This document shows positions 1,162 to 63,701 of a stretch of DNA of 64,000 bases, in pieces (within the stretch, counting starts at the first letter, position 1; each line of letters begins with the position of its first letter). A model generated the notes under the pieces. It had not been told where the DNA came from. It ran no database searches and was given only the letters and a program-made list of their open reading frames with translations. This DNA is from Candidatus Azophilus sp. (GTDB lineage Bacteria > Pseudomonadota > Gammaproteobacteria > Pseudomonadales > Azotimanducaceae): contig OZ244892.1 of assembly GCA_965221465.1 (NCBI GenBank), positions 1,577,536 through 1,641,535 on the forward strand. Reading direction: 5' to 3'. Both the position numbers and the translations under genes were made by a program.

Positions 1162-1189
1162 CGGCGCGATGCATGTCATGGCCCTTTTT

Positions 1190-1676
1190 CATGGAACACT
1201 TTTTCCAAGTGATTGATTCTATTGAATTCGCTAACCAAGGAACCCTTACATTCGATTCGGCTCCGAGAACCGGTAAGCGTCCAGATCCGTTTTGGAGATT
1301 TCACCCCCACGGTATTACGGTATGATCGTTCGTAGTTTCCTGGCTCCTGGGCTTGTCATTCGGGCATTCATGCCCACATATCCATTCAGGATGTCGGGAA
1401 ACGACGGTGGCGACCAAACTCGTGCACGGCCCCTGAGGCCTGGCTTTAAACGGTCCGCCACCGCACCCGCCGCCGGTCGCGACCGGCGGCGGGTGGACCC
1501 ATCCCATGGGCTTACCGAGGTCGAGCTTGACCGGGGTCCACGTGGGGAGATCAAACAGAAAAGCCCCAACAGCGCCATTCGGCGAGCCGGATACACCCAC
1601 CGCACACCGGCTCTCTCCCAGCGTATGACTGGTGTTTCTTGCGCGTCTTCGTCCCGGCGCGCCGGGTTCGGAACTC
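1190..1676 (-). repeat. Structured intergenic repeat element, copy A (expanded, about 490 nt, carries an extra interior of about 290 nt)
   Basis: Read on the minus strand: head GAGTTCCGAACCCGGCGCGCCGGGACGAAGACGCGCAAGAAACACC, GGGAGAG, a 5' arm, a large interior, a partial 3' arm (CCGGTTCTC), then tail AATCAATCACTTGGAAAAAGTGTTCCATG. Aligns with copies B and C at both ends. Confidence 0.8.
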
Positions 1677-1678
1677 GC

Positions 1679-3577
1679 GTGAGAAAGAGATTGTTTGTCG
1701 GGATGCTCGCGACACTCGGCGCGCTCTGTGGACTGGGGGGTTGTGCACCGTCGGGTGAGCGGACGGACGGGGAATCGCCCGGCACGCAGGTCGCTGTCGG
1801 GCAGCAAGCCCCGGCCATCGACGCGAATCCGAACCGCAGCGCCTGGTTTGGTGACCTGCACGTGCACTCGCTGCATTCGCTGGATGCCTTCATATTCGGG
1901 ACGCGGGCGACCCCTGACGACGCCTACCGGTATGCCAGGGGTGAACCGCTCGCCCACCCCGCCGGCTTCGAGATGCAGCTTTCGGCGCCCCTCGACTTCC
2001 AGGCCGTCACCGACCACGCCTCCTACCTGGGCATCATGGCGGCCATGGCGGACCCCGCTTCGAACGTGGGGGCTCATCCGCTGGCAATGGCCCTGCGCGA
2101 CGCCAAAAACCCCGACGAACGGCTCTCGTATTTCCTGGATGTCGTGCCGGCCATGCTCGGTTCCGACGAAGGCGCGGAATTGCTGGACCTCGACATCGTC
2201 CGGGATGCATGGCGGGACATCGTCGAAACCGCCGAACGGCACAACGAGCCCGGTGTGTTCACCACCTTTATCGGTTACGAGTACACGGCATCGGGCCCCG
2301 AAGGCGCCAACCTGCACCGCAACGTGATCTTCCGCGGCAGCAACGCCCCCGACCTGCCCTTCGGCGCCGTCGATTCCCTCAATCCCGAGGACCTGTGGGA
2401 CTGGATGGACGGCTTGCGGGCGCTCGGCATCGAGTCGCTGGCCATCCCTCACAACCCCAACCGGTCCAATGGCATGATGTTCGAACCCAACGACCGGGCG
2501 GGCAGGCCCATCGACGCCATCTACGCCAATCAGCGCATGCGCAACGAACCGCTGGTGGAGGTCACCCAGGTCAAGGGAACCTCCGATACCCATCCCCTGC
2601 TCTCGCCCAACGACGAATGGGCCGATTTCGGCATTTCCGATCAGCGGGCCAGGTCGCCGTTGCCCAGCCGAGCCGCCGGGAGCTATGTGCGCAACGCCTG
2701 GCTGCGGGGCCTGGCCATCGAGAACGACCGGGGATCGAATCCGTTTCGGTTCGGCCTGATCGGTTCGTCCGATACCCACAACGCGGGCGGCTCGTTCCGC
2801 GAAGAGAATTACGTCGGCAAGCTCGGGTTGCTGGATGCCACGCCGCAACAGCGCGGTTCGGTGCTGCCGGCCGACCCGGCTCGGGCCGTACGCGACCCCG
2901 CCCCGACAGACGGCCGCACCTGGGGCGCTTCAGGCCTTGCCGGAGCCTGGGCGGAGTCGAACACCCGCGACGCCATCTTCGCTGCGTTTCGCCGCAAGGA
3001 GACCTTCGCCACCAGCGGGCCTCGCATCCGGGTCCGGTTTTTCGCCGGAACCGGTATCGACGAATCGCTGCTGGACGCGGACGACCCGATTGCCGCCGCC
3101 TATGAATCCGGCGTGCCGATGGGCGCCGACCTGCCGCCGGGCGACGGTTCCGCGCCCGGGTTTTTCGTCTGGGCGATGCGTGACCCCGAGACCGTGCCGC
3201 TGCAACGCCTGCAGGTCGTCAAGGGCTGGATCGAGGGCGATGAAACCAGGGAGCAGGTCTACGACGTTGCCTGCTCCGACGGCGGGCAGTTGGACATCGA
3301 CACCCACCGCTGTTCCGACAACGGCGCCACGGTCGACCTGTCCACCTGTAACGTCAGTAGAGAGACGGGCGCGGCCGAACTCGCCGCCGTCTGGAATGAC
3401 CCGGGCTTCCGACCCGGACAACGCGCCTTTTACTACGTTCGTGTTCTGGAGAATCCCAAGTGCCGCTGGTCTACCTGGGACGCAATCCGTGCGGGCGTCG
3501 CGCCCAATCCCGACATGCACGCCACCATCCAGGACCGGGCCTGGTCTTCACCGATCTGGACCGGGCCGGCACGATAA
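1679..3577 (+). CDS. DUF3604-family protein, predicted lipoprotein
   Basis: The ORF frame from 1292 is trimmed to GTG 1679, giving signal peptide VRKRLFVGMLATLGALCGLGGC (lipobox). HVHSLHSLD and DH metal-site-like motifs are typical of DUF3604. ATG 1703 is an alternative start. Confidence 0.75.
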   Translation: MRKRLFVGMLATLGALCGLGGCAPSGERTDGESPGTQVAVGQQAPAIDANPNRSAWFGDLHVHSLHSLDAFIFGTRATPDDAYRYARGEPLAHPAGFEMQLSAPLDFQAVTDHASYLGIMAAMADPASNVGAHPLAMALRDAKNPDERLSYFLDVVPAMLGSDEGAELLDLDIVRDAWRDIVETAERHNEPGVFTTFIGYEYTASGPEGANLHRNVIFRGSNAPDLPFGAVDSLNPEDLWDWMDGLRALGIESLAIPHNPNRSNGMMFEPNDRAGRPIDAIYANQRMRNEPLVEVTQVKGTSDTHPLLSPNDEWADFGISDQRARSPLPSRAAGSYVRNAWLRGLAIENDRGSNPFRFGLIGSSDTHNAGGSFREENYVGKLGLLDATPQQRGSVLPADPARAVRDPAPTDGRTWGASGLAGAWAESNTRDAIFAAFRRKETFATSGPRIRVRFFAGTGIDESLLDADDPIAAAYESGVPMGADLPPGDGSAPGFFVWAMRDPETVPLQRLQVVKGWIEGDETREQVYDVACSDGGQLDIDTHRCSDNGATVDLSTCNVSRETGAAELAAVWNDPGFRPGQRAFYYVRVLENPKCRWSTWDAIRAGVAPNPDMHATIQDRAWSSPIWTGPAR

Positions 3578-3604: not shown

Positions 3605-5794
3605 TCAAAGGCGCTCGGCGTAGTGGCGAAACCTGGCGTCATCGCCAATGTCCCGAGCAATTGCCGCAGCAGCGCGCAGCAGATTTCGATCGCCGGGGCG
3701 GCGTTCCAGCGCCCGATCCAGAACGGCGATGGCCTGCTCCGACTCGCCCCGCGAATGCAGCGCCACCGCATGCACGTAGGCCAGGTGCGGATCGTCCGGC
3801 GCCAGTTCCACGGCCTGCGCAAGCAATGGCATTGCATCGGGATGGCGCCCCTGCCTGACCAGCCACAGCGCCCGGGCCAGCTTGACTTCGGCGGAGCCGG
3901 GCGCGAGCGCCGATGCGCGCTCCAGCAATTCGCCCCCGGCTTCGTCGCGATTCGTGGCGCGATAGAGATCCGCCAGGTTGACGAGCGCCGGCACCCAGTT
4001 CGGAGAGAGGCGCAGGGCTGCTGCAAGAGCCGTCTCGGCGCCCTCCGGGTTTCCGAGCGCCCGGAAAACGGTCGCCAAGTTTGTATGGGCCTCCGGCCGG
4101 TCCGCATTGAATCGCTGGGTGGCCAGGTACTCGTCCAATGCCTCGCGAAGAGGGAAACGCTCGCTGTCCGGTAGGGTCGAATGCGCAGCCGACAGCACCC
4201 GGGCCGCTTCGCTCCGCACCGCAAGATAGCTGTCGTCGAGCAGGTGCCGAGCCCCCCGCCAGAGGCGTTCCGGCGGAAACCGTGCGGCGCCGCGCAAAGC
4301 GCCGATGCGCACCAACGCGTCCGAATCGCGCAATCCCTGCTCGAGCGCAAGGGCCGTTTCGCCGTCGTCGTAGGATTCCATCAGCGCGAATGCGCTGGCG
4401 CGGACGATGGCGGCCTGATTCCGGTTTGCCGCCAGCGCGGCGAGCGCCCCCCCGATCCCCGGCCGGCCGAGCCGTGCTGCCGCAATCACGGAAGCGAAAT
4501 GGGGCTCGTCCGTCGGCCCGAATCGGGCCGCGAGCACATCGCGAGCCCACCCGGCCGTCTGATCGTCGTGACAGCCGTTGCAGGCATTGCGAATGCCCGG
4601 CGTTACGGTCAGATCGGGCCTCGGTATGCGAAAACCATGGTCCCGCCGGTCGTCGAGCACCATGTAGGTGCGTTCCGGCATGTGACACGAAACGCACTGC
4701 GACCCCTCACTGCCGGCAACATGCAGGTGGTGATCGCGAGAGTCGTAGTCGGCGAGCGGCAGCGTCGGGAAATCCGGGTTGCCCGCCTCGTTGTGGCAAC
4801 GCGTGCAGAGCGCGTCGCCGCTCACGACAAGCTGCGCGGAGTGGGGCTGGTGGCAATCCCCGCACGTGACGCCGCGCGCGAACATCCGGCTCTGAAGGAA
4901 CGATCCGTAGACGTATACCTCGTCTTCGATCTGCCCGTCGGCTTCGTAGAGGCCGGCTTCCAGCAACGACGGCAGGTAGAAGTCCAGGAACGGGCGGTCG
5001 GGAGTATAGCCGTCGGCAAGTTGTGCGCGCCGGCTGTGACAGGGTGCGCAGCTATCGATCTGCTCGCTTTGAGTGCGGAGACCGACGATGGCTCCGCCTT
5101 CCCGGTTTCCACCGGATTCGTCATGACCGCGCTGACCGGCCCAGGCGACGTGCAGCGACCCTGGGCCGTGACAGGCTTCGCAGCCGACCGAAACTTCGGC
5201 GAACTCCGTGCGGTAGGCGTTTTCCGCCGGGTCGTACCCCTTCCTGACCCCGGTGGAGTGGCAGTCCGCGCACATGAAGTTCCAGGTGTAGGCCGGGCCG
5301 CTCCAGTGCAACGGGTCCCCGTGTCGTGCCCCATCGACCGGCTGCAGGTGAAACCAGCGTTCGGCGGCCGTATCCCAGGCTACCCCGAGCGCCTGCAGAC
5401 GGCCCCCTTCCCCTTCCAGCAGGTACTGCTGCAAGGGCTCGACGCCAAATGCATACTGCACGTCGAATTCATCGACGTCTCCCTCCGGGCCGGCGGTACT
5501 GACGACGAACCGGCCATCGCGGCGGCCGAAAACCGTCGTTTCCCCACCGTGGGCGAAGGACGAGCCCTCGAAGTCGGCAGCCACGCTCGCACCGCTGGCA
5601 GGCTGCATGGCCAACTGGTGATGGGATCCGAGCCAGTCTTCGTACGCCTTTCCATGACACCCCGCACAGGCCGCGGAACCCACGTATTCCGCTTCGCCCG
5701 CAACCGGCGCCTGACCTTCTTCGGAATCCGGTGCGCCGCTGCAACCCCACAGCAGCCAGGCCGCAGCCCAGATTCCGAATCCCGGCCGGTTCAT
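3605..5794 (-). CDS. Multiheme (8 x CXXCH) c-type cytochrome fused to a C-terminal TPR domain, predicted lipoprotein
   Basis: 729 aa. N-terminus MNRPGFGIWAAAWLLWGCSG. Heme motifs CAGCH, CADCH, CEACH, CAPCH, CGDCH, CTRCH, CVSCH, CNGCH. The C-terminal roughly 300 aa is Ala/Leu-rich and TPR-like. Confidence 0.85.
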   Translation of the reverse strand: MNRPGFGIWAAAWLLWGCSGAPDSEEGQAPVAGEAEYVGSAACAGCHGKAYEDWLGSHHQLAMQPASGASVAADFEGSSFAHGGETTVFGRRDGRFVVSTAGPEGDVDEFDVQYAFGVEPLQQYLLEGEGGRLQALGVAWDTAAERWFHLQPVDGARHGDPLHWSGPAYTWNFMCADCHSTGVRKGYDPAENAYRTEFAEVSVGCEACHGPGSLHVAWAGQRGHDESGGNREGGAIVGLRTQSEQIDSCAPCHSRRAQLADGYTPDRPFLDFYLPSLLEAGLYEADGQIEDEVYVYGSFLQSRMFARGVTCGDCHQPHSAQLVVSGDALCTRCHNEAGNPDFPTLPLADYDSRDHHLHVAGSEGSQCVSCHMPERTYMVLDDRRDHGFRIPRPDLTVTPGIRNACNGCHDDQTAGWARDVLAARFGPTDEPHFASVIAAARLGRPGIGGALAALAANRNQAAIVRASAFALMESYDDGETALALEQGLRDSDALVRIGALRGAARFPPERLWRGARHLLDDSYLAVRSEAARVLSAAHSTLPDSERFPLREALDEYLATQRFNADRPEAHTNLATVFRALGNPEGAETALAAALRLSPNWVPALVNLADLYRATNRDEAGGELLERASALAPGSAEVKLARALWLVRQGRHPDAMPLLAQAVELAPDDPHLAYVHAVALHSRGESEQAIAVLDRALERRPGDRNLLRAAAAIARDIGDDARFRHYAERL

Positions 5795-6020
5795 CGCAAG
5801 TCGAGTGTGAACCGCACCGCCCCGTCACGCCCTGCGGGCGAACGCCGAACGCGTTGTTTCCGGACGTCGAACGCGATCGTCAATCGCGTCGACGGGCTCG
5901 TTTTCCATCGTCATCTGCATGGTTTTCATGTTGCACGCCATCGGTGTGGGCTGAGCCATGGCCATGCTAACCCAAATCCCGTCGATGCTCTGGCCCTGGC
6001 AAGCATCCGTCACCGGCTTT

Positions 6021-6059
6021 CGCCTCGACGCCCTCGCGGCGAAAGTTGGTGAGGGATGC
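6021..6059 (+). repeat. REP-like element (CTCGCGRCGAAAGTTGGTGA variant)
   Basis: CGCCTCGACGCCCTCGCGGCGAAAGTTGGTGAGGGATGC. The same unit occurs at 13601, 63652, and (reversed) 20301 and 32015. Confidence 0.75.
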
Positions 6060-6223
6060 AGGCAGGGTCGATGGATTCGACCTCTGCCGGTCTGCATCGC
6101 CGGATTCGTTGCAACACGGCACCAACCTTGGATACATTGCGCCGTTCACCGAGCCGGCGCAGAGCATGGCACCTCACTCCGAGCGTGCCCCCGGATGCCG
6201 GCAAACGAATTCGGAGAGCGGCA

Positions 6224-9357: not shown

Positions 9358-11649
9358 CTAATCGCCGGCCACCTGCGGTATCTCGCAGGCAGTCTCCAGC
9401 AACTCCGGATACTCCTCGCGGTAGGACGACTCGCAGAATGCAATGACCCCATTGGCCCGGTCGACGACATAGGCGCGGATATCCTGCGCACCCCGGGCAT
9501 CGAGCACATGGCTGAACTCCGGCATGCCCATCTGCGTATAGGCGCCGTCGAGGACGATGGCGTTCCAGATGTCGTGGGTTGCTTCACTCGCGTACAGCAG
9601 GCTGCGTATCGTCCCCGAGGTCCCCACGCCCGGGCCATGGCAGGACGCACAGTAGACGTGAAAGGCGTCCTGGCCGCGCCGTACCTGTTCCTGCGTGTAG
9701 TCCATTGGCGGTGGCGTGGGCACGCCGATGTAGGTCACGTCGGGCTGCGGCAACTCGACATTCCCGCCCAGCTTGTAGGTCAGAATCCGCCCCTCGCTCA
9801 ACACGTTGTCCCGGTGGCGGGGTGCGCCGGTCGCGACGCCGTAGGCTCCGCCCCAACCGGCAACGACACTGATGTACTGTTCCCCGTCGACGCTGTAGCT
9901 CACGGGCGCTGCAATGATGCCGACATGGGTCGGGCTTTCCCAAAGGAGTTCTCCCGAATCCGCGGCATAGGCGGCAAACCGGCCGTCTGCCCGGCCTTGA
10001 AAGACCAGATTGCCGGCCGTGGACAAGAGGCCGCCGTTCCACGCGGTGGCGTGCTGGACTCGCCACACTTCCTGCTGGCTCACCGGGTCCCAGGCCGCGA
10101 GGAAGCCGCGGATGTCCTGCAGGTTGGCGATATTCTCCTCCGCGGTGGGCGGCGGTGCGGAGAGGCGGAAGTCGACCCCGGTGTTCCAGGCCTCGGGGGC
10201 GTACTTGAAGGCGTTGTCCTGGGCATAGTCGAAACGCATGTCGAGAGCGGGGATATAGACCAGGCCGGTCCCCGGATGGTAGGTCATGGGATGCCAGTTG
10301 TGCCCGCCCAGCGGGCCGGGCCGAACGCGCTTTGTTTCGTTGGCATAGTGTGCCTCGGGGTTTTCCACCGGGCGCCCGGTTTCCGGGTCCACATGGGTCG
10401 CCCAGGTCACGGGCACGTAGGCTTCCGCCGAGATGAACTCGCCGTTGGTGCGGTCGATAACGTAGAAGAAGCCGTTCTTGGGCGCCTGCATGATCACCTG
10501 GCGCATGCGGCCGGCAATCTCGATGTCGGCCAGGATCATGTGCTGTACGGCGGTGTAGTCCCAGGTGTCGCCGGGGGTCGTCTGATAGTGCCATGCCCGC
10601 CGGCCCGTATCGGGGTCGATGGCTACGATGGAGGACAGGTACAAGTTGTCCCCGCCGCCCGGGCTGCGAATGTACCGGTTCCAGGGCGAGCCGTTGCCGG
10701 TACCGATATACAGCAGGTTCAGGTCGGGATCGTAAGCCATGGAGTCCCAGACCGTGCCGCCGCCGCCGACTTCCCACCACCTGCCGCCCTGCCAGGTGGC
10801 GGCCGCCAGTTCCATGTCTTCGGTCTCGAAACCGTCGGCGGGATTGCCCGGCACGGTATGGAAACGCCACAATCGCTCGCCGGTAGCAGCATCGTAGGCG
10901 GTGATGTAGCCGCGAACGCCGTATTCCGCGCCGCCGTTGCCGATGATGACCTTGTCGCTGACGATCCGGGGCGCGCCGGTGATGGTGTATGCCCGGTCGC
11001 GCGGCGTGGTTTCCACATCCCAGACGGGTTCGCCGGTGCCCGCATCCAGTGCAACCAGGCGTCCGTCGAGGGTGCCGACGTAGATCCTGCCCTTCCAGGC
11101 TGCCACACCGCGGTTGACCACATCGCAGCAGGCGTATCGCCCCCAGGCGCGCGGCACCTGCGGGTCGTATTCCCACAGCAACTCACCGGTTTTCGCATCG
11201 TGTGCCCAGACCACCGACCAGGTGCCGGTGCTGAACATCACGCCGTCGACGACGATGGGGGTCGCCTCGAGCCCGCGTTTCGTGCCGGTGTCCCAGTACC
11301 AGGCGAGGCCCAGTTCGCCCACCGTTTCCCGATTGATCGCATCGAGGGGGCTGTGCCGCTGCTCGTCGTAGGTACGCCCGGTGCTGAGCCAGTTGCCCGG
11401 TTCGCCCTTCGCGATTCGCGCACCGTCGATGTCGGCCGTTGCCTGTTGAATCTCCGTGACGCGAGACTGCGGGGAATCGACCGGGGCTTCCGACAATGGG
11501 GACACGGCCTCACCCCCCTGGCCCGACGGTTCGGAACACCCGTTCAGCAACGCCAGCAGCCCGACAACAGCCAGGTTGCGCTCGAAGGCCCGCCGGCAAA
11601 CAAATGGAAGATCACTATCGGAACCAGGCGCCGCAGTCGTAACCATCAT
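9358..11649 (-). CDS. PQQ-dependent quinohemoprotein dehydrogenase (alcohol dehydrogenase type, C-terminal cytochrome c domain), predicted lipoprotein
   Basis: 763 aa. Vicinal-Cys motif YACCDVVNRG, beta-propeller W-repeats, C-terminal CASCHG heme site. Signal RRAFERNLAVVGLLALLNGC. The only usable start is ATGATG at 11649, inside the tail of repeat copy B. Confidence 0.9.
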   Translation of the reverse strand: MMVTTAAPGSDSDLPFVCRRAFERNLAVVGLLALLNGCSEPSGQGGEAVSPLSEAPVDSPQSRVTEIQQATADIDGARIAKGEPGNWLSTGRTYDEQRHSPLDAINRETVGELGLAWYWDTGTKRGLEATPIVVDGVMFSTGTWSVVWAHDAKTGELLWEYDPQVPRAWGRYACCDVVNRGVAAWKGRIYVGTLDGRLVALDAGTGEPVWDVETTPRDRAYTITGAPRIVSDKVIIGNGGAEYGVRGYITAYDAATGERLWRFHTVPGNPADGFETEDMELAAATWQGGRWWEVGGGGTVWDSMAYDPDLNLLYIGTGNGSPWNRYIRSPGGGDNLYLSSIVAIDPDTGRRAWHYQTTPGDTWDYTAVQHMILADIEIAGRMRQVIMQAPKNGFFYVIDRTNGEFISAEAYVPVTWATHVDPETGRPVENPEAHYANETKRVRPGPLGGHNWHPMTYHPGTGLVYIPALDMRFDYAQDNAFKYAPEAWNTGVDFRLSAPPPTAEENIANLQDIRGFLAAWDPVSQQEVWRVQHATAWNGGLLSTAGNLVFQGRADGRFAAYAADSGELLWESPTHVGIIAAPVSYSVDGEQYISVVAGWGGAYGVATGAPRHRDNVLSEGRILTYKLGGNVELPQPDVTYIGVPTPPPMDYTQEQVRRGQDAFHVYCASCHGPGVGTSGTIRSLLYASEATHDIWNAIVLDGAYTQMGMPEFSHVLDARGAQDIRAYVVDRANGVIAFCESSYREEYPELLETACEIPQVAGD

Positions 11650-11890
11650 GAAAATACCTTCCAAGTGATTGATTTCATTGAATTCGCGAACCAAGGAAAC
11701 CTTACCTTCGATCCGGCACCGAGAACCGGCATGCGGTACGTGCATGCGGCGCACCAGGCGGCGGCGCTTACGGCTACGATAGGCGCAAGAGCGAGCCTTA
11801 ACAGCGCCGCATACACGCACCGCACACCGGTTCTCTCCCAGCGGGCCTTTGTTGCTTTCACGTCCGCGGTCCCGCGCGCCGGGGTGAAAT
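11647..11890 (-). repeat. Structured intergenic repeat element, copy B (full length, intra-operonic)
   Basis: Aligns end to end with copy C. The 32-nt arms 11835-11804 and 11752-11721 pair at all positions. Tail ...AATCAATCACTTGGAAGGTATTTTCATG. Confidence 0.9.
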
Positions 11891-11939
11891 CTTTCATCGA
11901 ATACCCCCTCCTGTGCTGTTCGATGAATGACGTGGAATC

Positions 11940-13567: not shown

Positions 13568-13600
13568 GCGGACGCCCCTGAACGGCAGGGCGCAGGACGG

Positions 13601-13636
13601 CACCTCGACGGCCTCGCGACGAAAGTTGGTGACGGG
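13601..13636 (+). repeat. REP-like element
   Basis: CACCTCGACGGCCTCGCGACGAAAGTTGGTGACGGG, same family as 6021. Confidence 0.75.
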
Positions 13637-13653
13637 TCGGGGCTGGAGATTTT

Positions 13654-13872
13654 CATGGTACAGATTTCCGAGTAATCGACTTTATTCGATGTGTTGACCT
13701 GGGGAACCATTCCGTCGAACCGGTCGCCGAAAGCCGGAGCAGGATACGTGCATACGGCGCGCCGAGCGATCCCTGAATTGCAAGAAACCTGTGGGACCGG
13801 ACACTAACATACAACCGGATTCGAGCGGAACGCCCATGCAGGCGCTGGACGCACCGTAAAGCTCCGGTATGA
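13654..13872 (-). repeat. Structured intergenic repeat element, copy D (diverged, head missing)
   Basis: Tail CGATTACTCGGAAATCTGTACCATG and 3' arm GCGCCGTATGCACGTATCCTGCTCCGG align to B and C. A degenerate complementary 5' arm is present (ACCGGAGC...GGTGCGT...GCGCC). Confidence 0.65.
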
Positions 13873-13873
13873 T
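13846..13873 (+). promoter_or_regulatory. Candidate sigma70 promoter for the ferredoxin gene
   Basis: TGGACG, 16-nt spacer, TATGAT, ending 42 nt upstream of ATG 13916. GAAGGAG Shine-Dalgarno at 13898-13904. Confidence 0.35.
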
Positions 13874-13915
13874 ACGCCCCCTTCCGATACCCCCGACGAA
13901 GGAGCGCGCTCAGCA

Positions 13916-16784: not shown

Positions 16785-16871
16785 CGCGCGCAGTCTATCA
16801 GAATCGGTAGCCGGATACTCCGACGACAGGGCGCCCTGGCGGCCGTCGCGAGCACGGCCGCGCTTGCGCGA

Positions 16872-16910
16872 GTGCATCGGCGTCCACAGCAGCGAGATGG
16901 TGATGGATGC
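16872..16910 (+). repeat. REP-like element (GCATCGGCGTCC variant, diverged)
   Basis: GTGCATCGGCGTCCACAGCAGCGAGATGGTGATGGATGC, compared with 37961 GTGCATCGGCGTCCGCAGCAGGAAGCTGGTGACGGATGC. Confidence 0.65.
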
Positions 16911-16913
16911 GGA

Positions 16914-18263
16914 CTAGCCGGTGATGCCGAAAACGAAGATCAGCAACACGGCTGCAGGCGCCAGATAGCGGACCAGCAGCCGCCAGACGGCGAACAGCGA
17001 TTCGCTGGCCATGCCGAGTTCGTCACGCGCCGAAGCGGTCTTGACGAACCAGCCGGCGAACACCGCGATCAACAGGCCGCCGACAGGCAACAGAATCTGG
17101 TTGGGCACGTAATCGAATACCGCATTCAGGTCACGGCCGAACACCTGAATTTCACTCCAGACGTTGTACGACAGCACACTGATCAGGCTGAGCACGGCAA
17201 CGCCGCAGAGAACCAGGAGTGCGCTCCTGTGCCGGGCAAACCCCTGGTGCTCTTCCATCCAGGCGGTCATGGGTTCGATCAACCCGACCATGGAGGTGAT
17301 TGCTGCGACCGTCAGCAGCAGGAAGAACAGCACGCTCACCAGGTGACCGCCCGGCATCTGCGCAAACGCCACCGGCAGGGTCTCGAAGATAAGGCCGACA
17401 CCGCCGGCCGGGTCCAGGCCGAAATTGAACACCACCGGAAAGATGACGAGACCCGCCACCAGGGCCACCAGGGTGTCCGCGGCGACAATCACCAGCGCGC
17501 TGCCGGGGATGGAGACGTTTTTGGGCAGATAGGCCCCAAAGGTCATCATCCCCGCCATGGCGACGCCGATGGAGAAGAACGCCTGGCCCACCGCGGCCAG
17601 GACCATCGGACCGTCGACCTTGCTGAAGTCCGGCGAGAACAGGTACGTGAGCGCCGCTCCGAATCCGCCGGCGAAGACGTTGTAGACCGCGAGCCCCACG
17701 AGCAGCACGAACAGCGTGGGCATCAGGACGCGCACGGCTCGCTCGATCCCCGAGCGTACCCCCGCGTAGATAATGACACCCGTGATCGCAAGCCCCAGGA
17801 AAGTCCAGAAAACGAGCCCGGGTATATCGACCAGCACCGCCGCGAAGCCCTGCTTGGCCGCAGCGGCGTCCATCCCCGCAAACCCCGTGAACACGGCCTT
17901 GTAGAGATACAGCAGCACCCAGCCGGCGATCACGCAGTAGACCACCTCGATCAGGAAGGCAGCCACCAGGTTCATGCCGCCCGCCCATTGCCAATGCCTC
18001 GATATTCCCGCATCCCGCGCCAGGGCACGCATCGAACCGGGCGGGCTCATGCCGCCACGCCGGCCGATCATGAGTTCGGCGATGAGTATCGGCACGCCGA
18101 TGGCGAAGGCGCAGACCAGATAAACGATCACGAAGGCGGCGCCGCCGTTCTCGCCGGTGATGTAGGGAAACCGCCAGATATTGCCGAGCCCCACGGCGAA
18201 GCCGACCGAAGCCAGCAGAAAACTCAGCCGCGAAGACCATTGCTCGTGTACCGCACCCGCCAT
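16914..18263 (-). CDS. Sodium-dependent transporter, NSS (SNF) family
   Basis: 449 aa polytopic protein. Signature GLGNIWRFPY near the N-terminus. Confidence 0.9.
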   Translation of the reverse strand: MAGAVHEQWSSRLSFLLASVGFAVGLGNIWRFPYITGENGGAAFVIVYLVCAFAIGVPILIAELMIGRRGGMSPPGSMRALARDAGISRHWQWAGGMNLVAAFLIEVVYCVIAGWVLLYLYKAVFTGFAGMDAAAAKQGFAAVLVDIPGLVFWTFLGLAITGVIIYAGVRSGIERAVRVLMPTLFVLLVGLAVYNVFAGGFGAALTYLFSPDFSKVDGPMVLAAVGQAFFSIGVAMAGMMTFGAYLPKNVSIPGSALVIVAADTLVALVAGLVIFPVVFNFGLDPAGGVGLIFETLPVAFAQMPGGHLVSVLFFLLLTVAAITSMVGLIEPMTAWMEEHQGFARHRSALLVLCGVAVLSLISVLSYNVWSEIQVFGRDLNAVFDYVPNQILLPVGGLLIAVFAGWFVKTASARDELGMASESLFAVWRLLVRYLAPAAVLLIFVFGITG

Positions 18264-18316
18264 TGCCCGTTCCCTCGTCCCGTTGCACCCAGCGCCGACG
18301 TGCAGATGCTACAGGA

Positions 18317-18567
18317 AAGTTGCCACCCCGGCGCGCCGGGACGAGGACGCGCAAGGAACACCTGATGACCCTTGGGAGAGAGCAGGTGTGCGGTGCGTGT
18401 ATCCGGCGCTGTTGAGGCTTGTGCTTGCGCCCATCTTCGCGGTAAGCACCTCCGCCTGGTGCGCCGGATGCACGTACCGTATACCTGCTCTCGGTGCCGG
18501 ATCGAAGGCCATGTTTGCCACGCTAACGAATTCAATAAAATCAATCACTTGGAAAGAGCGTTCCATG
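18317..18567 (+). repeat. Structured intergenic repeat element, copy C (full length)
   Basis: Head AAGTTGCCACCCCGGCGCGCCGGGACGAGGACGCGCAAGGAACACC. Arms 18378-18409 and 18461-18492 pair at 32 of 32 positions. Tail AATCAATCACTTGGAAAGAGCGTTCCATG. Confidence 0.9.
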
Positions 18568-18630
18568 AAAGTTCCCAACCCGGCGCGCCGGGACGAGGAC
18601 GGGCAGACAACAGCGGACAACGGGGGACAG
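18568..18630 (+). repeat. Structured repeat element, head-only module C' (tandem, directly after the ATG of copy C)
   Basis: AAAGTTCCCAACCCGGCGCGCCGGGACGAGGACGGGCAGACAAC..., the same head as the other copies. Confidence 0.8.
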
Positions 18631-18714
18631 CAAGAGTGCAATTCGACTCGAATACTCGGCTGCCGGATTGATATCATCTCCGGCACGACGATACCGTGGC
18701 CGGAAGAGCACGCC

Positions 18715-20280
18715 GTGATCGATTACACGCAGCCCTATCCGTCATCCCGCTCCCCGGTTTGCGCCGCCAACCTGGTGGCCAGCTCTCAACCCCTGGCCGT
18801 ACAGGCTGGCATTCGAGCCCTGCGCCGGGGCGGCAATGCCGTCGATGCCGCCCTCGCCACCGCCATCGCGTTGACCGTCGTCGAACCCAACAACAACGGC
18901 GTCGGCAGCGATGCATTCGCCATCGTCTGGGACGGGGAGGCACTCACGGGGTTGAACGCCTCCGGACGGTCTCCGGCAGGCTGGACCCGCGATCGATTTG
19001 CCGACCGCGATGCCATGCCCCACCGGGGATGGGACGCCGTAACCGTACCCGGCGCGGTAAGTGCCTGGGTAGCCCTGTCCGAGCGATACGGCAAGCTGCC
19101 CTTCGAAGAACTGTTCGAGGATGCCATCGGCTATGCACAGGACGGCTTTCAGGTCGGCCCCAAGACCGCCTGGTATTGGCGATTCGCCGAGGAGATGTAC
19201 GGCGAATTCCAGGATTTTGCCGAGCATTTCCTGCCGGCGCCCCAGCCGGGCGACCTGTTCCGGCGCGCAGACCTGGCCGCCACGCTCATCGAAATCGCGC
19301 ATACCCGGGGCGAGTCGTTCTACAGGGGCCGACTGGCAGAGCGCATCGAAGCCGCCGCCGTTGCTGCCGGCGGCGCCATGCGAAAGGCAGACCTCGCGAG
19401 TCATCGCGCCGAGTGGGTCCGACCGCTGGCACAGGACTACCGGGACGTGACGCTGCACGAGATTCCACCGAACGGGCAGGGCCTCGCCGCACAGATCGCA
19501 CTCGGCATCCTGCAACACCTCGACATCGCGCCGCTCGACTCGTCGGACAGCGTGCACCGGGAACTCGAAGCCATGAAGATCGCCATCCGGGCGGCATTCG
19601 ACCACTTTGCCGACCCGGCACACATGCAAGTCGACCCGAAGGCACTGCTGGATGCGGCGTCGCTCGAGCGAATCGCGCACGGCATCGACGACCGGGCGGC
19701 TCCGCTGCCGCCGGTGGCACTGCCGACCGGTAGCGACACGGTCTACCTGGCCACCGCCGATGCCGACGGCATGATGGTGTCGATGATCCAGTCGAACTAC
19801 GAAGGGTTCGGCTCCGGCATCGTCGTGCCCGGAACCGGTATCGCCATGCAGAATCGGGGCCTGGGGTTCGTGCTCGACCCCGGTCATCCGAACGAGGTGG
19901 GGCCGAACAAGCGCCCGTACCACACCATCATCCCCGGGTTCGTGACCCGCGCCGGCGCACCGCTTCTGAGTTTCGGCGTCATGGGCGGCCACATGCAGCA
20001 CCAGGGCCACGTACAGATGGTGCGGCGCCTGTTCGACCACGACCAGAACCCCCAGGCCGCCAGCGATGCCCCGCGCTGGCACGTCTACCCGGATTTCAGC
20101 GTCGGCCTGGAAACGGGGTTCGATCCTGCCGTCGCTCGGAGCCTGGCCGACCGTGGCCACCGGGTCAGGCACGAACCGCTCGAACGCGTCTTCGGTGGCG
20201 CGCAACTGATTCTGAAAACGGATTGCGGCTACGTGGGGGGATCCGATCATCGCAAGGAAGGCATGGCCGCCGGCTTCTGA
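18715..20280 (+). CDS. Gamma-glutamyltransferase-family protein (no obvious signal peptide)
   Basis: GGT-family sequence (SQPLAVQAG, GSDTVYLATAD with the Thr nucleophile, GGHMQ). GTG 18715 is preceded by GGAAGAG. The in-frame ATG 18565 in the repeat tail is an alternative start. Confidence 0.8.
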   Translation: MIDYTQPYPSSRSPVCAANLVASSQPLAVQAGIRALRRGGNAVDAALATAIALTVVEPNNNGVGSDAFAIVWDGEALTGLNASGRSPAGWTRDRFADRDAMPHRGWDAVTVPGAVSAWVALSERYGKLPFEELFEDAIGYAQDGFQVGPKTAWYWRFAEEMYGEFQDFAEHFLPAPQPGDLFRRADLAATLIEIAHTRGESFYRGRLAERIEAAAVAAGGAMRKADLASHRAEWVRPLAQDYRDVTLHEIPPNGQGLAAQIALGILQHLDIAPLDSSDSVHRELEAMKIAIRAAFDHFADPAHMQVDPKALLDAASLERIAHGIDDRAAPLPPVALPTGSDTVYLATADADGMMVSMIQSNYEGFGSGIVVPGTGIAMQNRGLGFVLDPGHPNEVGPNKRPYHTIIPGFVTRAGAPLLSFGVMGGHMQHQGHVQMVRRLFDHDQNPQAASDAPRWHVYPDFSVGLETGFDPAVARSLADRGHRVRHEPLERVFGGAQLILKTDCGYVGGSDHRKEGMAAGF

Positions 20281-20300: not shown

Positions 20301-20373
20301 CGCCAACTTGCGTCGCGAGGACGTCGCGGCGCTTGCCCGAGGGCATCGGCGTCCGCAGCAGGAAGTTGGTGAC
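20301..20373. repeat. Inverted pair of REP-like elements (BIME-like)
   Basis: CGCCAACTTGCGTCGCGAGGACGTCGCGG (20301-20329) faces GCATCGGCGTCCGCAGCAGGAAGTTGGTGAC (20343-20373), head to head. Confidence 0.75.
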
Positions 20374-20454
20374 CGGTGCGCGTTAAATCCGATTGCCCGT
20401 TTTCCTGAACACGGGTAACGAGTTATCCTGATCAGACGACGCAAGGACGCAATC

Positions 20455-26577: not shown

Positions 26578-26618
26578 TGTACCACGGGTCCGACTTCTGC
26601 CCATACAGGCGACACTTC

Positions 26619-26765
26619 GAGTTTCGAACCCGGCGCGCCGGGACGACGACGCCCGGGAAACACCCGTCAACCGCTGGGAGAGAACCGGTGTGCGGTGCGT
26701 GTATACGGCTTGCCGAATGGCGCTTTCCGGGCTCGTGTTCAATAACTTGAAAACTCTTTTCACGC
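26619..26765 (+). repeat. Structured repeat element, copy E (head + 5' arm, internal deletion, degenerate tail)
   Basis: GAGTTTCGAACCCGGCGCGCCGGGACGACGACGCCCGGGAAACACC...GGGAGAGAACCGGTGTGCGGTGCGTGTATACGGC. It then shares GCCGAATGGCGCT with copy A. The 3' arm is absent. Tail-like GTTCAATAACTTGAAAAC. Confidence 0.75.
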
Positions 26766-31847: not shown

Positions 31848-32004
31848 CCCACCCTCGCAGGGCAAAGGGTCATTGTAGCCTTTCTTTCGAGGGCAGCCGC
31901 GATGACCGAGTTGCTGCAATCAGGCGCGTCCGGGCTCGCGGACCCGCGTCGAGCAGGCGCGCACGTGAACGGACAAGCATTTTGACACTTGCTATCCTAC
32001 CGTC

Positions 32005-33204
32005 GTGTCCAGCCCGCATCCGTTACTGATTTCCGTCGCGAGGGCGTCGAGGTACCGCCTCACCGGACCCGTCGTTATCGGCGGCTCTCGATCTGCAATT
32101 CAATTCATTTGCGCGGTCGCCATCGTTGCCGGCTGCGGCCGCTACCCGTCGGATGCCACCCCGACAGACAGGATGCAAACCGCCGACGATCCCGTTGCGT
32201 CCGCACTGATGACGCCGGTGCATGTGCGGGTCAAGCCTGCATCGGTGGCCGATATCGGCCGGCAGGCCACCGTTGCCGGCATCGTGGAGGCGTTTCGCAC
32301 CGCCACCATCGCCGCAGAGACCAACGGCCGGGTCTTGTCCCGGTCCGTCGAGCCCGGCGATTCCGTGCAGGCCGGACAGGTGCTCGTCGAGCTGGACAAG
32401 GAACGGGCGCTGATCGCGCGCGACCAGGCCGCAGCCCGGTTGCGCTCCCGTGAGGTGGATCTCGAACAGGCGGGCAACGAATTGCAACGCGGGCGCGACC
32501 TGCATGCCCGGGAATTCATCAGCGAGGATGCACTGGAAGACCTCGGTTTCGCGGCAGCCCGCGCCTCGTCGGCGCTGCAGGCCGCCCGGGCCGACCTGGA
32601 CGCTGCCGAGCGAATGCTGAAAGACACCGAGGTGCGCGCTCCGTTCAAGGGCATTGCCGAAACGGTACACGTGCACGAAGGCGACTACCTCAAATCCGGA
32701 ACACCGGTAGTGACGCTCGCCGACTTTTCCAGCGCGCGGATCAAGGCCGGCGTAACTGCCCGGGAAGCCGTATTGCTGCAGGGCGCCGAGCATGCCGAAC
32801 TGACCGTCGACGCACTCGGCGCAGGGGCGATCGACGGCCGGATCAACAGCCTGGCGAGGGTTGCCGACGCTGCCACGGGAACCTATGCGCTGGAAATCTG
32901 GCTGAATGACATGAGCACCGATCTGCAGGAACGCCTCCGGGCAGGCATGCTCGCCACCGTGTACCTCCCCTATGCGGCTACGTCGGCCCCAATCACGGTT
33001 CCGAGCAGCGCGGTATTCCGCCGCGGCGGCGCGATGCACGTTTTCGTGGTGGAGGGCGACAGTGCCTTCTTGCGGCCAGTCCACACCGGGCGAACCAACG
33101 GCCCAACCGTCGAAGTGCTCGACGGGCTGGCGGAGGGAGTCCTGGTGGTGACCGACGGCCAGTTCGCGCTGCGCGATGGCGCCCCGGTCATCGTCGAAGA
33201 CTGA
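32005..33204 (+). CDS. Efflux RND transporter periplasmic adaptor (MFP/HlyD family)
   Basis: 399 aa. Lipobox-like AIVAGCG, coiled-coil hairpin region, barrel domains. Immediately upstream of the RND pump. The N-terminal codons run through a REP-like unit (32015-32052). Confidence 0.8.
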   Translation: MSSPHPLLISVARASRYRLTGPVVIGGSRSAIQFICAVAIVAGCGRYPSDATPTDRMQTADDPVASALMTPVHVRVKPASVADIGRQATVAGIVEAFRTATIAAETNGRVLSRSVEPGDSVQAGQVLVELDKERALIARDQAAARLRSREVDLEQAGNELQRGRDLHAREFISEDALEDLGFAAARASSALQAARADLDAAERMLKDTEVRAPFKGIAETVHVHEGDYLKSGTPVVTLADFSSARIKAGVTAREAVLLQGAEHAELTVDALGAGAIDGRINSLARVADAATGTYALEIWLNDMSTDLQERLRAGMLATVYLPYAATSAPITVPSSAVFRRGGAMHVFVVEGDSAFLRPVHTGRTNGPTVEVLDGLAEGVLVVTDGQFALRDGAPVIVED

Positions 33205-36564: not shown

Positions 36565-36978
36565 ATGATCAGCAGCGGACCCATCGAAGACCGGCTCGCC
36601 ATCCGTGAACTGGTGGATTCCTACAACGATGCCGTGATGCGTTTCGACGGCGATGCCTGGCAGGCCAACTGGCGTGACGACGCCGTCTGGTCGTTGCCGG
36701 GTGCGGGGCCGATCGCAGGCAAGAAGAACTTCTACCCCATCTGGCAGCAGGCCATGGCCGGTTTCTCGTTCGTGGGGTTCTTCGCATCCGCAGGCCCGAT
36801 CGTCGTGGACGGCGACCGGGCCCACGGAACCTGGTACCAGCAGGAAGTGCTGCACCAGAAAGACGGCGGCAAGCGTCATGTCACCGGCCGATACGAAGAC
36901 GACTACGTCAAGGTCGACGGGCGCTGGTACTTCCAGAAACGGGACTACAGCATTCTCAGTTCCGAAGAGACCGCCTGA
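36565..36978 (+). CDS. SnoaL-like / NTF2-family protein
   Basis: 137 aa; IEDRLAIRELVDSYNDAVMRFDGDAW. AAGGAG upstream. Confidence 0.7.
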   Translation: MISSGPIEDRLAIRELVDSYNDAVMRFDGDAWQANWRDDAVWSLPGAGPIAGKKNFYPIWQQAMAGFSFVGFFASAGPIVVDGDRAHGTWYQQEVLHQKDGGKRHVTGRYEDDYVKVDGRWYFQKRDYSILSSEETA

Positions 36979-37146
36979 CCGCACGCCAGTTCTCGGCGTC
37001 GAATCGCAGGAACGGTTCTCCGCTAAGGGAGAGCTTTAAATTCAACAACTTGTAGATTGAATTCATGCAAGGAGCGCCCCCTCGCGACGAAAGCTGGAGA
37101 GGTATGCGGGCTGGCCGCACCGGGTCAAGATTGAAGGAGAACGACC

Positions 37147-37920
37147 ATGAACATGCTCGAGCGCTTCCGACTGGACGGCAAGGTCGCGGTCGTGACCGGC
37201 GGCGGGCGCGGCATTGGCCGGGGTATCGCCCTGGCGCTCGCCGATTGCGGGGCCGATGTCGCGGTCGTCGCCCGGCGCCGGCACGATGTCGAGACCGTGG
37301 CGGGCGAAATCGAGACGCGCGGTCGTCGCGGTCTGGGCTTGTCGGCAGACGTCATGGACTTCGAAGCCATTCCGACGGTGCTCGACCGGGTGGTCGACGA
37401 ATTCGGTGGCCTCGACATAATGGTGAACAACGCCGGCGGCAACCTGGATCGTAAAATGTACGCCTTGCCCGAAATGTCGCTAGCCAAGTTCGACGAGCAA
37501 CTCGCGCTAAACATGAAGACCAAGTGGTGGGGCTCGCAGCAGGCCGCCAGGCGCATGCAGAACGGCGGGCGCATCATCAACATCATCTCCATTGCGGCGC
37601 ACAAGCCTTCTCCCGGATTCGGTGTCTACTCCGCCGCCAACATGGGCATGATCAGCATGACGCGCACGCTTGCCGTCGAACTCGCGCCGAAGGGAATCAC
37701 CGTGAACTGCATCGCCCCCGGCGTCATCGTCACGGAAATGCTGGTGGAGACCATGAAGATCTCCGAAGAAGAAGCGCGCGCCGCCATGGCCCCGCAAATC
37801 CCCCTCGGGCGCACCGGCACACCGGAAGATTGCGCCGCCGCCGCCGTCTTCTTCGCCTCGCCCGCCGCAGAGTGGACGACAGGACAGTTCATCGACGTGG
37901 CCGGCGGTCAGCCCAACTGA
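37147..37920 (+). CDS. Short-chain dehydrogenase/reductase (atypical catalytic motif)
   Basis: 257 aa. TGGGRGIGRG cofactor motif. The active-site region reads YSAAN instead of YxxxK. GAAGGAG Shine-Dalgarno. Confidence 0.85.
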   Translation: MNMLERFRLDGKVAVVTGGGRGIGRGIALALADCGADVAVVARRRHDVETVAGEIETRGRRGLGLSADVMDFEAIPTVLDRVVDEFGGLDIMVNNAGGNLDRKMYALPEMSLAKFDEQLALNMKTKWWGSQQAARRMQNGGRIINIISIAAHKPSPGFGVYSAANMGMISMTRTLAVELAPKGITVNCIAPGVIVTEMLVETMKISEEEARAAMAPQIPLGRTGTPEDCAAAAVFFASPAAEWTTGQFIDVAGGQPN

Positions 37921-37960
37921 TAGGGGCGCGGCTGTATCCGAAACAGCGGTTTACCCCGCA

Positions 37961-37999
37961 GTGCATCGGCGTCCGCAGCAGGAAGCTGGTGACGGATGC
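37961..37999 (+). repeat. REP-like element (GCATCGGCGTCC variant)
   Basis: GTGCATCGGCGTCCGCAGCAGGAAGCTGGTGACGGATGC, between convergent genes. Confidence 0.75.
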
Positions 38000-38016
38000 G
38001 GGCTGGATAGGCATTT

Positions 38017-42692: not shown

Positions 42693-43040
42693 GTCGGCCG
42701 GTGTGCCGTAGCCTATCCTGCCGCCAAATCGGCGCGATGACGAGGCGTTCTTGTTCAGTTGCGGTTAACTTCGTAGTACGTCCAACGCGGTGCGAGGGTT
42801 TTCGGGAAAACGCGTCGCGAGAAGCCGCAGGCTATCGCCCCTCTCCAACCCCGAAGCTCGTACCCGCCGAACGGTCCGGCAAATCAGCGCCATGTGCACG
42901 CCCGAAGCGGGCGCGAGATCGACCCACCGTTCCGAAACAATCCGGATAGCCCCGGCACGCGGGTGCCATGCCCGGCGCGCACCGCTTGACCGTGGCTTGC
43001 ATTCGAAGTTACTTTGCTCCGCCAGAAAGGACAGCGTTCC

Positions 43041-61601: not shown

Positions 61602-61668
61602 CCCGCCTATCGCAACAAGCCTCTTGTCAGTTTGACGGAAGCCCTCTGATTTCGCTCAATTTCCTTGC

Positions 61669-61733
61669 GAGTCCCGAACCCGGCGCGCCGGGACGACGAC
61701 GCGCAAGGAACACCTGACAACCGCTGGGAGAGG
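61669..61733 (+). repeat. Structured repeat element, head-only module F
   Basis: GAGTCCCGAACCCGGCGCGCCGGGACGACGACGCGCAAGGAACACCTGACAACCGCTGGGAGAG, 68 nt after the ubiG stop. Confidence 0.8.
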
Positions 61734-61748
61734 GGCGTGGATCGTTGT

Positions 61749-63525: not shown

Positions 63526-63701
63526 ATCTCACCAACTTCCTGCTGCGGCCGCCGATGCACTCGCCCTGCGCGGCCGTGCTCCCTCCTGCCGATTTGACAT
63601 ACTGTCAAGTATGCCTGCATCGTCCTCCGGTCCGCGCGACCGCGCAGGACGGCGCCTCGACACCCTCGCGACGAAAGTTGGCGAGATTTCCGGGTTAAAC
63701 C
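63512..63701. repeat. Inverted pair of extended REP-like units (about 50 nt arms) flanking a roughly 90-nt spacer
   Basis: Left arm GGTTTAACCCGCATATCTCACCAACTTCCTGCTGCGGCCGCCGATGCAC. Right arm, reverse complement: GGTTTAACCCGGAAATCTCGCCAACTTTCGTCGCGAGGGTGTCGAGGCGCC. Confidence 0.75.

Follow-up and report, generated by a model that had tools for sequence, protein, structure and literature searches.

What is the multi-copy intergenic element of about 250 nt, built around a 32-bp helix, that lies at positions 18317-18630 of a 64,000-nucleotide stretch of Candidatus Azophilus sp. (assembly GCA_965221465.1, contig OZ244892.1, positions 1,577,536 to 1,641,535 of the forward strand; hereafter the window), and does its helix belong to a transcript, to single-stranded DNA (ssDNA) or to a plain DNA palindrome? 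An initial annotation of this locus had described two helix-bearing copies, here called C (18317-18567, +) and B (11647-11890, -), together with several expanded, diverged or partial ones (Table 1). We followed it up by computational analysis and found a dispersed modular repeat, with selection on one strand for a hairpin, turnover at orthologous sites and ends that overlap start codons.

A hairpin kept paired by compensatory substitutions

Copies C and B align end to end, as first described. In each of them the two 32-nt arms pair at 32 of 32 positions (28 Watson-Crick and 4 G-U pairs), and our recount agreed that the five pairs at which the two copies differ all remain paired, three through double compensatory changes (G-C to A-U, A-U to C-G and C-G to G-C) and two by way of wobbles (U-A to U-G and G-U to G-C). 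The helix is part of both the minimum free energy (MFE) and the centroid structures of copy C predicted by RNAfold, with a folding energy of -118 kcal/mol (z = -5.35), compared with -105.6 kcal/mol (z = -3.7) for the reverse strand.

The pairing was then examined in an alignment of 24 copies that carry the same hairpin sequence as the window (type I), from at least six genomes and with 22 copies coming from genomes other than that of the window. RNAalifold predicted 39 pairs in this alignment, 11 of them with changes on both sides, and 99.1% of the paired cells in the 24 copies were indeed paired, while control registers slid by 1-3 columns were only 28-53% paired. The 11 double-change pairs compare with 3.2 ± 1.1 in shuffled alignments, a value that none of 500 shuffles reached, and the 28 double-change cells with 5.6 ± 1.8 in 500 shuffles. 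A short inner helix within the hairpin interior (columns 56-59 / 96-99) shows A-U to G-C changes as well. A covariance model built from the type I alignment scored the hairpins of copies C and B at 125.8 bits (E 6e-33) and 126.8 bits, respectively, and detected no further helix-bearing copy in the window. In other genomes an unrelated sequence of equal length (type II) occupies the same slot, with compensatory columns of its own (C-G/U-A and C-G/G-C). Loss of covariation on alignment of more copies had been named beforehand as a result that would speak against the proposal; with 22 copies added, the signal gained strength. We conclude that the hairpin is kept paired by compensatory substitutions and is under selection for pairing.

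One-strand wobbles in an exchangeable module

The full unit, which is non-coding, modular and dispersed, measures ~250-340 nt. It starts with a junction 10-mer, TTYCATGMRA, a near-palindrome centred on CATG, followed by a head module that exists in two variants and contains the invariant 14-nt palindrome CCCGGCGCGCCGGG and GACGCGCAAGGAACA. Then comes a hairpin module of 30-35 bp around an interior of ~50 nt, its stem opening with a purine run (GGGAGAGAG or GGGAAAGAG), and after it CTCGGTGCC and a tail with an AT-rich stretch, a perfect consensus for integration host factor (IHF; AATCAAnnnnTTG) and a Shine-Dalgarno (SD)-like GAGG/GGAA. The unit is closed by a second TTYCATGMRA, whose ATG is terminal. 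Copies in many genomes have the 10-mer at both junctions, in direct orientation, and terminal inverted repeats are not present; the 32-bp inverted repeat is internal, with ~60 nt of the unit to its left and ~75 nt to its right. Copy-specific target-site duplications were also absent from the loci compared (L021, L022, L025, L026, L041, L049 and others), where the two 10-mers of one copy resemble each other no more closely than 10-mers taken from different copies; they are hence not fresh target duplications.

Each module comes in alternative forms. Besides the hairpins of types I and II there is a type III, in which a ~105-nt structured insert is nested in a type I hairpin in either orientation, and of the two tail variants, the second (B) carries ATTATGTYAAAT, which is identical to the dif arm bound by XerD and keeps a constant spacing to the terminal ATG. 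All nine matches to this motif in 576 kb lie inside tails (L022, L027, L031, L043, L046, L052, L055, L058 and L064). Heads, hairpins and tails are exchangeable cassettes. The IHF consensus is likewise concentrated in the tails, which hold 23 of its 39 matches in the 576 kb; in the window, AATCAATCACTTG in the tails of copies A, B and C is a predicted IHF site by consensus match only, that of copy C being a perfect fit to WATCAANNNNTTR. A full dif site in tail variant B was considered and rejected, as the XerD arm alone matches and no convincing XerC arm adjoins it. The insert of type III is GC-rich (GGGGTCGCCACCGG...GCCGAAGCACCGCTTCGGC...CCCCGCAACTGGTTGCGGGG) and is probably a separate small nested repeat. 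One further locus, L024 (~4600-4950, -), holds an element without the AT-rich tail amid several tandem units of ribosome-binding site (RBS) and start codon (AAAAGAGGAGACACCCATGAA).

On the opposite strand the four G-U pairs of copies B and C become non-pairs, an argument of the initial annotation for a helix that exists in one orientation, and the relatives agree with it. Type I hairpins hold 84 G-U cells, which fall into 14 column states, compared with 4 A-C cells, each a singleton state of its own, and the main helix of type II holds 32 G-U cells in 5 states against a single A-C; overall, the column states number 19 for G-U and 5 for A-C. All seven wobble columns with at least five copies are G-U on the element strand, which is the strand bearing the SD-like sequence and the ATG. 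Moreover, wobbles toggle with Watson-Crick states (U-G/C-G, G-U/A-U/G-C) and persist between copies that are ~80% diverged (the window versus metagenome-assembled genomes, MAGs). This pattern of substitutions speaks for a single-stranded structure that only one of the strands forms, rather than for a plain DNA palindrome, and would fit RNA and ssDNA alike, which upholds the earlier preference for a transcript or ssDNA. A discrete structured-RNA locus is not supported, since the hairpin is an interchangeable module of a mosaic repeat that behaves as mobile DNA: it is not a stand-alone RNA gene, riboswitch or protein gene.

The same data bear on the idea of a double-stranded DNA feature, that is, a cruciform or protein-binding architecture for nucleoid organisation or a recombination hot spot, with its complementarity due to conversion within the element and its G-U pairs to mutation bias. 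The head palindrome, which is invariant in 39 heads, shows no covariation and is the only head structure found by RNAalifold, would suit such a feature, as would the conserved IHF consensus in the tail and the conversion between copies that is evident from the loci L041 and L059 described below. However, homogenisation at the DNA level should remove wobbles, which here stay in the same columns across ~80% diverged copies and toggle only between G-U and Watson-Crick pairs on one strand. The presence of two unrelated hairpins in one slot points in addition to a need for "a long hairpin" and not for a particular binding sequence. We regard this explanation as quite improbable.

Turnover and start codons at the element ends

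Syntenic relatives of the window (L015-L019) were reached through homologues of a neighbouring SpoIIE-type protein, with protein identities of 78-90%. In the spacer between the divergent SNF symporter gene and the GGT gene that flank copy C, the window has a head, hairpin, tail and second head, L015 a head and a degenerate arm 1, and L018 two full, diverged copies in convergent, tail-to-tail arrangement; L016 and L017 have no element there. The site of copy B is empty in L016. Elsewhere, L041 and L059 are orthologous and share identical junctions, one being type I with tail A and the other type III with tail B, which indicates conversion between copies, and in L061 and L069 the hairpin has been precisely deleted. 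Tandem head-to-tail copies occur in L030, L036, L055 and L058 and, as copy C followed by a second head, in the window; nested copies are seen too, and elements decay to solo heads or solo tails. Finally, between the ferredoxin and thiolase-like genes, where L015, L016, L017 and L019 each have a gene for a CoA-transferase (CoA_transf_3), the window has degraded copy D instead. This gap (window 13604-13915) filled by an element suggests an element-associated deletion.

The near-palindromic 10-mer at both ends fits site-specific recombination or a cut at a fixed motif of the IS200/IS605 kind. The hairpin could be an ssDNA signal, in which case the element would move by way of a top-strand ssDNA intermediate and a strand-specific enzyme would recognise it, either an HUH/Y1 transposase (IS200/IS605, REP-RAYT) or a Xer-type recombinase working on folded ssDNA as with CTX phage, with any RNA effects as by-products. 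This would account for the strand-specific structure, the lack of terminal inverted repeats and copy-specific target duplications, the tandem head-to-tail copies, the TTCCATG found 5' of the left end and again at the right end, like IS200/IS605 cleavage sites, and the XerD arm in tail variant B, for which nine of nine matches fall in tails. We nevertheless consider it rather unlikely as the main role of the hairpin. The hairpins of IS200/IS605 or REP are short and subterminal, quite different from a perfect 32-bp stem 60-75 nt from the ends, the XerD-like motif has no convincing XerC arm beside it, and the ~20 window proteins checked include neither a Y1 transposase nor a recombinase, in keeping with the earlier statement that the window holds no transposase. 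Nor is there a replication-strand bias: the GC skew is negative in all eight 8-kb bins of the window and the copies are distributed as 5 (+) and 4 (-), so that, in this small sample, orientation follows the genes and not replication.

The relation to genes is illustrated by copy B, which lies between a ChsH2-like gene and the gene of a PQQ quinohemoprotein alcohol dehydrogenase (PQQ-ADH) and is co-oriented with both. In L016, PQQ-ADH starts GGGGGATTCGATGAAAG..., a sequence orthologous to the left edge of copy B, and its start corresponds to the left ATG of the copy (11897), while the present start in the window is the tail ATG (11649). As L016 is empty at this site, copy B parts the ancestral SD and ATG from PQQ-ADH and its tail gives the present ATG. 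The gene opens in L016 with ATGAAAGCTTCCATACCGGCC (MKASIPA), and in the window the protein is newly extended at its N-terminus by 25 residues, encoded from the tail ATG onwards across a second, degenerate head. The opening codons of host genes thus consist of head-like sequence (L016 16180-16200; L015 8466-8421; window 11575-11649). Among the 22 non-tandem right ends, seven have a terminal ATG that opens an open reading frame (ORF) of at least 98 codons, including a RuvC gene and several secreted proteins, and left ends often lie a few nt past the stop codon of the upstream gene. This gene is co-oriented in 24 of 34 cases, according to crude gene calls on the loci, and eight of the nine window copies are sense to at least one neighbour. 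The tail ATG of copy C (18565) is in frame with the GGT gene, as had been pointed out, but it is not its start, as GGT homologues of 521 aa place this at GTG 18715. The frame upstream of GGT (18181-20280, +) is open through all of copy C and invites an over-long gene call.

Could the element encode a small protein? Copy B contains an 83-aa ORF with SD and ATG whose stop overlaps the next ATG, laid out as a coupled upstream ORF, and the frame of the left ATG runs on for 60-100 codons without a stop in B, in C and in most type I copies. Against this, variable columns are spread evenly over the codon positions (55/51/52 across 23 type I copies), with no codon periodicity or third-position excess, and the compensatory changes in the arms alter amino acids. 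Type II has an in-frame TAA that stops the frame after 33 codons, the left ATG is missing in about a fifth of the heads, and the ORF of copy B had no Pfam match and no match other than itself among 5.8 billion proteins. A small protein gene was consequently rejected on Pfam, homology and lack of codon periodicity, and we consider it extremely improbable. This ORF (11646-11897, -) already figures as a predicted protein in a public protein collection, which is an annotation hazard.

Dedicated regulatory RNAs, either cis-acting leaders of riboswitch type or a multi-copy small RNA with its own promoter and specific targets, would explain a structure that is conserved, covarying and strand-specific and that in several copies sits directly 5' of a gene and ends at its start codon. 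But the neighbours are functionally unrelated (GGT, PQQ-ADH, RuvC, TonB receptors, a ZIP transporter and others), and no conserved position upstream of related genes, as expected of a riboswitch, was found. Many copies lie past stop codons, between convergent genes or in antisense, presence varies at orthologous sites, and the hairpin sequence is replaceable, as types I and II show. A scan of copy C found no promoter or intrinsic terminator consensus. Rfam 15 gave no match in the window at gathering level, and in E-value mode the best models were miRNA precursors at 29-36 bits against thresholds of 89-168. Such RNAs are in our opinion very unlikely.

The explanation that we favour, and that the comparative data make probable, is a selfish element of intergenic regions that has no transposase gene itself. 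Such an element would usually be co-transcribed with its neighbours in sense orientation, and its RNA hairpin would act between cistrons as a double-strand-specific processing site or as an exonuclease barrier affecting stability. Its tail would re-supply an RBS and a start codon, so that insertions at or near gene starts would be tolerated, copy B at PQQ-ADH being the example. Spread would depend on an enzyme acting in trans or on recombination at the junction 10-mer and head.

Several observations weigh against this explanation. Transcription and its strand are inferred, and the top strand folds more stably than the bottom one in only 28 of 39 copies. The G-U excess could stem in part from C-to-T deamination of a non-template or displaced strand and not from selection on RNA. 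The orientation bias is modest (15 sense versus 6 antisense in tandem-gene contexts, the window included; p ~0.08), and ~15% of the copies are antisense to both neighbours (5 of 36 MAG loci and copy A of the window, which is flanked by the genes for a Rieske oxygenase and a DUF3604 lipoprotein); these copies would need a promoter of their own, for which the consensus scan gave no candidate. As for mobility, the ~20 window proteins checked include no mobilising enzyme, and the junction repeats are not copy-specific target duplications. A more radical proposal, which we judge distinctly unlikely, is a new class of non-autonomous mobile element that would move through a strand-specific single-stranded intermediate (SINE-like RNA or folded ssDNA), with the exchangeable hairpin as recognition module, and would integrate at a near-palindromic, TTYCATGRAA-like 10-mer, often at start codons, its own IHF site, RBS and ATG re-starting the interrupted gene.

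Copies in the window and relation to known elements

Copies in the window were recovered by repeat search, blastn and nhmmer (Table 1), and all of them are intergenic according to a gene context established with Pfam. The head palindrome occurs six times against 0.42 expected, and a tail 16-mer three times against 0.27 expected. Directly after the tail of copy C, the second head module of the initial annotation was recovered as a direct repeat of the first (18309-18369 / 18561-18621, 79% identity) and by nhmmer. Copy A, previously called expanded, does have an enlarged interior, with ~290 nt of unrelated sequence between an arm 1 with an 11-nt insertion and the tail, but only the last ~10 nt of arm 2 are kept; its head is present. 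The extra interior includes a perfect 28-nt palindrome, CCCGCCGCCGGTCGCGACCGGCGGCGGG (window 1464-1495), and a similar GC-rich stretch lies at 37187-37211. Copy D is diverged as proposed, with arm 2 and tail recognisable, but its long helix no longer folds. Copy E belongs to the subtype of copy A, with the same 11-nt insertion, and lies ~40 nt past the stop of a rhomboid gene. Of two possible remnants, that at 37025-37067 is real but forms part of a larger solo tail, while 42968-43043 gave no match in blastn or nhmmer and has no more than a stretch resembling the palindrome and, where a gene starts, a GCGTTCCATGG junction.

Table 1. Positions of element copies, their parts and further repeats; coordinates refer to the window unless a locus is named.
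Feature	Position	Strand	Support or remark
Copy C, complete element (head, hairpin, tail A, terminal TTCCATGAAAG)	18309-18571	+	nhmmer 18303-18573, E 5e-52
Head palindrome CCCGGCGCGCCGGG of copy C	18327-18340	+	6 exact matches in window
Hairpin arm 1, copy C	18378-18409	+	32/32 pairing with 18461-18492; in MFE fold
Hairpin interior, copy C, 51 nt with short inner helix	18410-18460	+	RNAalifold
Hairpin arm 2, copy C	18461-18492	+	32/32 pairing; MFE fold
Tail A, copy C	18493-18560	+	includes AATCAATCACTTG (18539-18551) and SD-like GGAAAGAG
Junction 10-mer TTCCATGAAA, closes copy C and opens next head	18561-18570	+	TTYCATGMRA at junctions, many genomes
Second, solo head directly 3' of copy C tail	18565-18630	+	nhmmer 18559-18606; other boundary 18559-18621
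Copy B, complete element	11647-11897	-	nhmmer 11910-11614 and covariance model
Hairpin arm 1, copy B	11804-11835	-	pairing count
Hairpin arm 2, copy B	11721-11752	-	pairing count
Copy A	1186-1695	-	blastn/nhmmer segments 1695-1586 and 1279-1186
Copy D, degraded; arm 2 and tail recognisable	13644-13872	-	nhmmer 13768-13644
Copy E, head and arm 1, truncated	26616-26765	+	match 26616-26733
Copy F, solo head	61647-61734	+	nhmmer
Copy G, solo head, begins 3 nt past a stop codon	63801-63852	-	nhmmer; match 63852-63806
Solo tail (end of arm 2, tail, TTCATG)	36978-37087	+	blastn and nhmmer
Nested ~105-nt insert, one orientation	L054 5495-5700, L059 1049-1254, L004 1099-1178, L018 7727-7936		
Nested ~105-nt insert, opposite orientation	L038 5621-5826, L018		
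Second repeat family	6010-6066, 13590-13646, 16857-16912, 20326-20387, 37080-37123, 37946-38002, 63642-63698	-	
Second repeat family	32000-32052, 63514-63563	+	

Beyond the window, the head pattern retrieved 55 loci from GTDB genomes, of which ~48 are true members, nearly all from a handful of related MAGs labelled uncultured Pseudomonadales or Gammaproteobacteria, and nhmmer profiles gave >130 matches in the 576 kb. Many of the GTDB loci lie within ~130 nt of contig ends, as expected of a repeat that breaks assemblies. The exact tail pattern had no match in the GTDB genomes, a collection that does not contain the window's own genome; the arm-1 pattern retrieved nine loci from JGI metagenomes, L004 alone being related. 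A head 18-mer had five matches in IMG/VR, all due to chance, and copy C had no match to PLSDB plasmids by blastn in distant mode. The family is thus peculiar to a clade of gammaproteobacteria that are uncultured and labelled at NCBI as "Pseudomonadales" MAGs. A paper on the sponge symbiont group Candidatus Poribacteria (PMC7883664) mentions the bin series "SB0662", and this bin name hints at a putative sponge origin of at least one element-bearing MAG. Three other identities were rejected, namely an integron attC site (no GTTRRRY core, no integrase), a tRNA-like T-arm in the head (its stem is not complementary) and heads F and G as termini of a composite transposon (they enclose the genes of a ZIP transporter and a pseudouridine synthase).

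No named family fits the element, as the initial annotation had stated, and a limited literature search found no description of it. By our comparison it appears functionally closest to Correia elements and ERIC, and architecturally to mosaic repeats such as BIME and BOX. BIMEs, the mosaics of REP units, and pneumococcal BOX elements are intergenic, transcribed mosaics of few interchangeable modules; REP units are 20-40-nt palindromes with a conserved GTAG that are mobilised by RAYT, BOX consists of boxA-boxB-boxC units, and in the RIP/RIB class of BIMEs an IHF site lies between palindromic units. The modular mosaic construction is shared (an architectural comparison partly after PMC2229807). 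A 32-bp stem, a head with a GC palindrome and a terminal SD-ATG are absent from all of these repeats, and the unit described here differs from REP/BIME in its length of 250-340 nt, in its ordered modules and in having one stem of 32 bp; no genome-wide search for RAYT was made. PATEs, which derive from IS200/IS605, and REP/RAYT lack terminal inverted repeats and target duplications, have strand-specific hairpins, require a Y1 transposase and carry a short conserved motif that stands beside the left end and again terminates the right one. The present element also has a strand-specific hairpin, and its ends are compatible with this pattern, though conservation here extends past the ATG on both sides. 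The hairpins of PATEs and REP/RAYT are short and subterminal, and a Y1 gene is lacking among the ~20 window proteins checked. The orientation with respect to replication expected of PATEs was not seen either, although the nine copies are a small sample.

Correia elements (CREE/NEMIS) of Neisseria are co-transcribed with their neighbours, form a long RNA hairpin cleavable by RNase III and alter adjacent expression (PMC2649163, PMC10969869). They are likewise small, non-coding, multi-copy and intergenic and have an IHF site, for which the element here has the consensus only. Their hairpin, however, arises from 26-bp terminal inverted repeats and their insertion duplicates TA, whereas the element here has an internal inverted repeat and ends in near-palindromic 10-mers of direct orientation, with no copy-specific duplication seen and no similarity in sequence; moreover, Correia elements create promoters, while this one ends in SD and ATG. 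ERIC/IRU and YPAL of enterobacteria are also intergenic repeats with a long, imperfect hairpin, are transcribed and affect the fate of mRNA in an orientation-dependent manner (PMC2229807, PMC10969869), but the ERIC unit of ~127 bp is itself the palindrome and belongs to another order of bacteria; the element here exceeds it 2-3 times in length and includes a head and a tail module that are not palindromic. Rickettsia palindromic elements are small repeats in reading frames that contribute codons to host genes (PMC2229807), much as heads and tails here supply first codons (PQQ-ADH in the window and L016), but they insert in frame within genes and are translated internally, and the present element lies at gene boundaries. 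With classical MITEs (miniature transposable elements with inverted repeats) it shares a non-coding length below 500 bp, many copies and insertion polymorphism, but not terminal inverted repeats or copy-specific target duplications. It is best filed with the small bacterial intergenic repeat elements and not as a new RNA gene.

A second intergenic repeat family of ~45-57 nt (CCAGCCCGCATnCnTCACCAACTTyC...GCGAGGGCGTCGAGG) is present in the window (Table 1). In L016 (1380-1620) a ~240-nt unit of this family has perfect 22-nt inverted repeats (CTAGCCCGCATATTGCACCAAG / CTTGGTGCAATATGCGGGCTAG) at its ends, and the family looks like a classical MITE. The interior of such a unit is resembled by the sequence just upstream of head F (61602-61660).

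The hairpin repeat family breaks assemblies of an uncultured Pseudomonadales-type clade, and knowledge of it should help binning, assembly and annotation. It also offers a natural experiment on selection for RNA or ssDNA hairpins, with two unrelated 32-bp stems in one slot, compensatory change and one-strand wobbles. If its spread is neither of MITE type nor of REP/RAYT type, a new mechanism would be added to the short list for small bacterial repeats, and the finding would be weightier still if spread uses a single-stranded intermediate or start-codon targeting; were the new-class proposal true, the element would be one made for insertion at gene starts in a way that the genes survive. In any case, as its ends overlap start codons and supply RBSs, the element rewires the 5' ends and N-termini of host genes, as at PQQ-ADH.

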